A stretch of 64,000 nucleotides of DNA from Escherichia coli (GTDB taxonomy: Bacteria > Pseudomonadota > Gammaproteobacteria > Enterobacterales > Enterobacteriaceae). Location of the stretch: assembly GCF_046105845.1 (NCBI RefSeq), contig NZ_CP151004.1, one strand, 5' to 3'. Shown here in pieces: positions 29,425-29,533 of this stretch (position 1 is the first letter of the stretch; each line of letters begins with the position of its first letter). Position numbers and translations under genes: made by a program. A model generated the notes under the pieces. The model was not told the DNA's origin. It did no database searches and worked only from the letters and a program-made list of their open reading frames with translations.

Positions 29425-29430
29425 TCCGCC

Positions 29431-29471
29431 CCCTGGGTGTATATACAGTTATGCTGTGAGTATATACAGCA
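29431..29471. promoter_or_regulatory. Two tandem LexA boxes in the lexA promoter
   Basis: ccctgggtgtatatacagtt and tgctgtgagtatatacagca; both fit CTGT-N8-ACAG. Confidence 0.9.
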
Positions 29472-29533
29472 AAAGGCGATTTTGGAACCATAAACTGCAC
29501 AATAAACCAGAGATTTATCGAAATCTGGAAGGG

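Follow-up and report, generated by a model that had tools for sequence, protein, structure and literature searches.

The region directly upstream of lexA raises the question of whether the two adjacent palindromic sites found there are a genuine LexA operator for the gene, and whether the promoter that they overlie also serves the neighbouring gene dinF. The SOS boxes of lexA were among the first bacterial operators to be described, and they are a standard example of negative autoregulation. An earlier note, made from the sequence letters, had placed tandem LexA boxes of the form CTGT-N8-ACAG at 29425..29475, assigned them to an autoregulated lexA-dinF promoter, and described dinF as following in an operon 19 bp after the lexA stop. 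Here, we present an analysis of this segment within the window, i.e. the whole 64,000-nucleotide (64-kb) stretch of DNA, combining matrix scoring of the boxes, comparison with other lexA loci and published observations. Judged by what can be read from sequence, the segment is the classical and already known lexA operator of E. coli, displaying every LexA-operator feature that is open to such a test.

The gene downstream of the boxes is lexA itself. The reading frame at 28816..29424 on the minus strand encodes 202 aa and is identified as lexA by Pfam, by NCBIfam and by the RefSeq annotation in matching E. coli genomes. Its product combines an N-terminal winged-helix DNA-binding domain (LexA_DNA_bind, PF01726, residues 1-65, 1.2e-31) with a C-terminal S24 self-cleaving peptidase domain (Peptidase_S24, PF00717, residues 77-193, 1.1e-36), and scores 289.5 bits against the NCBIfam lexA equivalog TIGR00498, for which the cut-off is 111. 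Of 5426 complete E. coli genomes, 5425 match the region and carry the annotations dgkA, lexA and dinF there, and the gene order plsB, dgkA, lexA, dinF, yjbJ, zur is the same as in E. coli K-12. Over the 20 kb flanking the operator (20000..40000), the best identity among the 5,426 complete E. coli genomes is only 98.8%, which suggests that the chromosome is probably of a somewhat divergent E. coli or Shigella type.

Both boxes lie within 29425..29475 and, as the earlier note had stated, directly upstream of lexA, the whole feature being on the minus strand. Box 1, the one farther from the lexA ATG, is the 20-mer TGCTGTATATACTCACAGCA (29452..29471, minus strand, read from 29471 to 29452), and its 16-bp core (29454..29469, minus strand) is an exact CTGT-N8-ACAG that holds the putative -10 hexamer. 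Box 2, which adjoins the ATG side, is the 20-mer AACTGTATATACACCCAGGG (29431..29450, minus strand, read from 29450 to 29431). Its core (29433..29448, minus strand) is CTGTATATACACCCAG, that is, CTGT-N8-CCAG, with one mismatch to CTGT-N8-ACAG. The description of two CTGT-N8-ACAG boxes therefore holds exactly for box 1 only, although both sites are where they had been placed. A single base pair separates the two 20-mers, whose centres are 21 bp apart, and the CTGT-N8-ACAG core forms part of the 20-bp SOS box consensus TACTG(TA)5CAGTA (PMC6590174).

The bare pattern is of little use as evidence for these sites. In the whole 64-kb window, exact CTGT-N8-ACAG is matched once, by the core of box 1, against 0.49 expected, and with one mismatch it is matched 18 times against 17.7 expected. 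A search for the bare pattern with 0 or 1 mismatch was hence not enriched over shuffled sequences and was rejected as evidence, and a full 20-bp LexA matrix was therefore used. The source of the matrix was the set of 18 SOS boxes in Table 4 of PMC3009722, from which the lexA entry was left out because circularity was to be avoided, leaving 17 published sites. The counts were made symmetric over the 20 bp, and the whole 64-kb window was scanned.

Box 1 scores 19.2 bits on this matrix (exact p 1.8e-7 per position; 0.012 expected per 64 kb) and for box 2 the score is 18.2 bits (exact p 3.6e-7 per position; 0.023 expected per 64 kb), while a pair scoring like the two boxes within 30 bp is expected about 1e-7 times per window. 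They are the top two sites of the 64 kb, followed by a box between uvrA and ssb at 17.4 bits and then by a site at 10.9 bits; the best score in random 64-kb sequences has a mean of 11.5 +/- 2.5 bits. The 17 training sites span 12.8-28.4 bits, a range that includes both lexA boxes, and the CCAG half-site of box 2 is present in 7 of these 17 listed SOS boxes. With the Lewis formula applied to these 17 sites, box 1 has an HI-like value of 6.43 and box 2 one of 7.99. For the heterology index (HI) a working cut-off of <15 has been used (PMC11002266), and HI-like values below 10 occur at only 4 positions in the window, counting both strands. Matrix scoring was the check that the earlier note had asked for, and the outcome is clearly positive for both boxes.

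A LexA box is expected between ssb (11906..12442, minus strand) and uvrA (12697..15519, plus strand), and the third-ranking site, TACTGTATATTCATTCAGGT (12594..12613), therefore serves as an internal positive control. Two other candidates were rejected. A possible third LexA box near lexA, at 29493..29512, reaches 6.7 bits, a score expected about 9 times per 64 kb; its right half lacks conservation, and the stretch resembles a small hairpin with a T-run following dgkA. A LexA-like 20-mer at 44187..44206, overlapping the xylE start codon, is the site at 10.9 bits and, with 1.4 expected per 64 kb, is at chance level.

The boxes were then set against the lexA promoter, which was placed by eye and by conservation. 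The predicted -35 hexamer is TTCCAA (29482..29487, minus strand), agreeing with TTGACA at 3 of 6 positions, and 17 nt downstream of it lies the predicted -10 hexamer TATACT (29459..29464, minus strand), inside box 1 and essentially invariant across 79 sequences. The lexA promoter was missed by a generic promoter scan, which needs 4 of 6 matches per hexamer, whereas the -35 has only 3. On the minus strand, the order is thus TTCCAA, 17 nt, TATACT under box 1, 1 base, box 2, GGCGGA and ATG. Judging by the position of the -10 and by the K-12 lexA promoter, transcription would start at about 29452, and the 5' UTR would be about 28 nt long. Box 2 would then span the ~20 nt with which the transcript begins and would reach the ribosome-binding site. 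Its 3' end is 6 nt from the lexA ATG and overlaps the purine-rich ribosome-binding region AGGGGGCGGA (29425..29434, minus strand), which stands before the ATG. With the start so placed, box 1 lies over the core promoter and box 2 over the early transcribed region. Literature searches for a measured lexA transcription start or for lexA-dinF read-through returned nothing useful. Just past the dgkA stop and upstream of the lexA -35, at 29493..29533, there is also a small inverted repeat, CCAGA..TCTGG, followed by TTTATT, which could act as a weak terminator for dgkA or as an A/T-rich upstream promoter element.

The operator is highly conserved, both within the species and beyond it. Among 5425 E. 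coli genomes, 5331 match an 86-bp operator query at 99% identity or more, and most complete ones match it at 100%. For comparison across other Enterobacterales, 80 lexA loci were collected and 120-160 nt upstream of the gene were examined, yielding 79 distinct upstream sequences, and both boxes are found in 74 of these. The 16-mer core of box 1 is identical in 74 of the 79, with a mean column identity to the window base of 0.996, and the core of box 2 has a mean identity of 0.889, rising to 0.998 in its CTGTATA left half. The ribosome-binding region has a mean identity of 0.93. Elsewhere the values are 0.81 for the -35, 0.55 for the promoter spacer, 0.67 for the 5 nt between the box cores and 0.49 further upstream, so that the orthologous promoters retain the operator while its flanks diverge. 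The -35 block is kept as TTYYMA and the spacer has a constant length. In box 1 the central 8 bp are invariant, probably because the -10 hexamer is carried there too, and the CTG on the left and CAG on the right, which are LexA-site positions outside the -10, are invariant as well. The centre of box 2 is variable, and its right half reads CCAG in Escherichia, Citrobacter and Enterobacter and the ideal ACAG in Yersinia, Serratia, Proteus and others.

Among the 74 two-box regions, the start-to-start distance of the boxes varies slightly. It is 21 bp in 62 of them, 20 bp in four (Erwinia; L039, L041, L046 and L058) and 19 bp in eight (Pantoea, Tatumella, Mixta and Rosenbergiella; L050, L054, L055, L065, L067, L068, L069 and L071). 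At 20 or 19 bp, the spacings of Erwinia and the Pantoea group, no base is left between the 20-mers, which lie end to end or share one base, and since such spacing is seen in 12 of the 74 regions, strict helical phasing is not required. This range of 19-21 bp across Enterobacterales is a small refinement of what was known of the operator. Five lineages have one box that is degenerate or missing, and a single box can therefore suffice: Arsenophonus (L081), which is without box 2, Candidatus Pantoea persica (L077), two Photorhabdus loci (L061 and L064), and a metagenome-assembled genome (L040) with TTTT for CTGT in box 2. Arsenophonus and Candidatus Pantoea persica are host-associated bacteria.

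On the other side of lexA, the same strand carries dinF, which encodes a MATE efflux transporter and for which two starts can be considered. The 441-aa form (27418..28743, minus strand), with the PGAP/RefSeq start, begins 72 nt past the lexA stop, and the longest reading frame, of 459 aa, begins at an ATG at 28797 (minus strand) and leaves an 18-nt gap. The 19 bp given in the earlier note, a distance also quoted for K-12 (PMC4481165), thus applies to the longest reading frame only, whereas the RefSeq start and the comparative data both point to 72 nt. The NCBIfam equivalog NF007690 matches residues 1-440 of the 441-aa protein, and the start in other genera lines up with the downstream ATG at 28743; as for the upstream ATG, it is in frame and open in E. 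coli alone, E. albertii not included. The upstream ATG moreover sits in the stem of a GC-rich hairpin that is followed by GTTTTT (28776..28805, minus strand). The terminator scan gave this hairpin 13 pairs, 8 of them G-C, and a loop of 4, its RNA fold has an energy of -29.9 kcal/mol (z -2.8), and it looks like an intrinsic terminator or attenuator. The real gap is probably 72 nt with a hairpin in it and not 18-19 nt, and a junction of 18-19 bp free of a terminator is not what the locus presents. A second small refinement is accordingly that the "19 bp" gap depends on a start codon whose conservation is confined to E. coli, and that the 459-aa DinF start is doubtful.

The arrangement of the two genes is itself variable. 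Downstream of lexA, dinF is present in 51 of the 80 loci and absent in 29; it does not follow lexA in Yersinia, Photorhabdus, Proteus, Providencia, Pectobacterium or Dickeya. In 28 of the 51 dinF-linked loci, a crude scan found hairpins of unrelated sequence with T-rich tails within about 160 nt past the lexA stop, most of them intergenic and a few inside the dinF reading frame. The Citrobacter junction instead has a longer GC-rich inverted-repeat sequence that is REP-like by eye. Between 27400 and 29430 the matrix scan found no LexA-like site of at least 6.4 bits, and the promoter scan found no promoter-like site on the minus strand from lexA to dinF.

Several other explanations of these observations have to be weighed. 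Box 2 could be a chance or relic near-match, conserved as 5' UTR and ribosome-binding sequence, with box 1 as the only working site. Its inexact core, its overlap with the conserved ribosome-binding region, its absence in Arsenophonus and its altered CTGT in L040 would all fit, but a score of 18.2 bits at the per-position probability given above does not look like chance, and the CCAG half-site that makes the core inexact recurs among the training sites. The CTGTATA half is almost fully conserved though it lies outside the ribosome-binding site, the right half, where it differs in other genera, becomes the ideal ACAG and not a random sequence, and two SOS boxes are counted in PlexA (PMC5152588). 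We consider a non-functional box 2 very improbable. It is harder still to believe that the whole block owes its conservation solely to a role as core promoter and leader, RNA hairpin or dgkA terminator, with its likeness to LexA boxes incidental. The LexA-defining CTG and CAG are invariant even outside the -10 hexamer, a matrix built without the lexA site ranks both boxes first in the window, and LexA control is documented in the literature (PMC6590174, PMC11002266, PMC5152588), even though box 1 holds the -10 and part of its invariance therefore stems from RNA polymerase contacts. The dgkA-lexA intergenic RNA does fold at -32.2 kcal/mol (z -2.4) and pairs parts of both boxes, but such pairing follows automatically from two AT-rich palindromes and lies mostly upstream of the putative transcription start; an RNA structure in this spacer was rejected as a separate feature, as the two palindromes alone explain it.

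A further alternative concerns dinF, which would stand outside the lexA operon if the hairpin were an efficient terminator and dinF had its own promoter. No promoter-like or LexA-like site was found between the two genes, and dinF is listed without an operator of its own and as co-transcribed with lexA (PMC6590174). The terminator-like hairpin with its T-run (28805..28776) and the conserved dinF start 72 nt past lexA speak for separation, as does the absence of dinF downstream of lexA in 29 of the 80 loci; yet Term-seq in MG1655 lists no dominant 3' end at the hairpin (PMC7815308, supplements), and strong termination there is therefore not claimed. Expression data can be cited on both sides: dinF is less variable than lexA (SD 0.71 vs 1.13), but the two correlate at 0.86 over 907 arrays (PMC4481165), and a lexA::Tn5 insertion was polar on dinF according to Krueger 1983, as far as that work is cited in PMC4481165. 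A dinF independent of lexA is in our view quite unlikely. The operon reading of the earlier note stands, since dinF has no LexA or promoter-like site of its own, lies next on the same strand and is co-transcribed according to the literature.

The segment is almost certainly the operator-promoter that serves lexA(-dinF) as a transcription unit in an E. coli-type chromosome, where two LexA dimers bind adjacent SOS boxes, lexA is autoregulated and dinF is reached by read-through. For this reading, the present analysis supplies what the boxes are in sequence, score, position and conservation, and which genes are involved; LexA binding, autoregulation, cooperativity and co-transcription are taken from the literature. 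The two dimers would occupy the two neighbouring 20-bp boxes. On box 1, LexA would cover the -10 hexamer and the transcription start, the exact position of which we infer, and would thereby sterically exclude RNA polymerase; on box 2 it would probably reinforce the block, with moderate cooperativity. Since LexA regulates its own gene, the circuit would be a negative feedback loop. Following DNA damage, RecA-stimulated self-cleavage would let LexA fall, the promoter would open and LexA would be resynthesised, so that repression could be back quickly once the damage signal ends. Lacking its own operator, dinF would come under SOS control by read-through from the lexA promoter. Repression is lost in a lexA(Def) background, according to the literature.

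Published observations agree with this picture of an autoregulated promoter. PlexA has been described as a negatively autoregulated promoter that carries two SOS boxes and has a Hill coefficient of 1.5 +/- 0.2 (PMC5152588), and lexA is itself an SOS gene, the continued synthesis of which allows rapid re-repression (PMC6590174). Ciprofloxacin induces lexA up to 3.5 log2-fold (PMC11002266), and motif discovery upstream of UV-induced genes recovered box 1 (PMC3009722). Together with the matrix scores and the identity of LexA and DinF, the two SOS boxes and the autoregulation reported in PMC5152588 support the proposal of an autoregulated lexA-dinF promoter with tandem LexA boxes.

Within this operon, dinF is probably only partly coupled to lexA, with transcripts partly lost before or early in dinF, because a hairpin follows lexA and a Rho termination region has been published early in dinF. 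The latter is located at MG1655 4257949 (+), has a Rho score of 6.1 and comes from DirectRNA-seq with and without bicyclomycin (PMC7815308, supplementary file 2); assuming collinearity with MG1655, it corresponds to about 28590 in the window, about 226 nt past the lexA stop. As a tentative proposal, which we hold to be possible but rather doubtful, the lexA-dinF junction might act as a tuning point, at which a hairpin conserved in form and variable in sequence, together with the Rho region, would set how much of the SOS transcript reaches dinF; the 459-aa start, and the 19 bp gap with it, might then be an E. coli-specific annotation artefact within the hairpin stem.

Compared with the E. coli K-12 lexA operator, in which the boxes are known as lexA-1 (TGCTGTATATACTCACAGCA) and lexA-2 (AACTGTATATACACCCAGGG), no operator difference is seen. 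We equate box 2 with K-12 lexA-2 as classically described (Brent and Ptashne 1981; Little et al. 1981). For box 1, Table 4 of PMC3009722 prints the same 20-mer as the site of lexA. The uvrA/ssb promoter in the same window belongs to the same motif family, has a score in the same range and is also located at DNA-repair genes. However, it has one box common to two divergent genes and exerts no feedback on the regulator, whereas lexA has two boxes.

Other SOS promoters with several boxes include recN, with three, and the colicin promoters, with two that overlap. In these, LexA dimers bind side by side and repression is stronger and more cooperative, which is their likeness to lexA. The lexA boxes differ from the overlapping colicin boxes in being separate 20-mers 1 bp apart, and the lexA product is the repressor itself. 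The locus also has value for calibration, as a real regulatory element that was recognised from raw sequence alone.

The window contains no tRNA genes. Rfam matches above the gathering score are the sRNAs sraL (8502..8642, plus strand) and STnc430 (50682..50830, plus strand), and a lysine riboswitch (52725..52921, plus strand), likewise above the gathering score, lies ahead of an ORF at 53013..54362.
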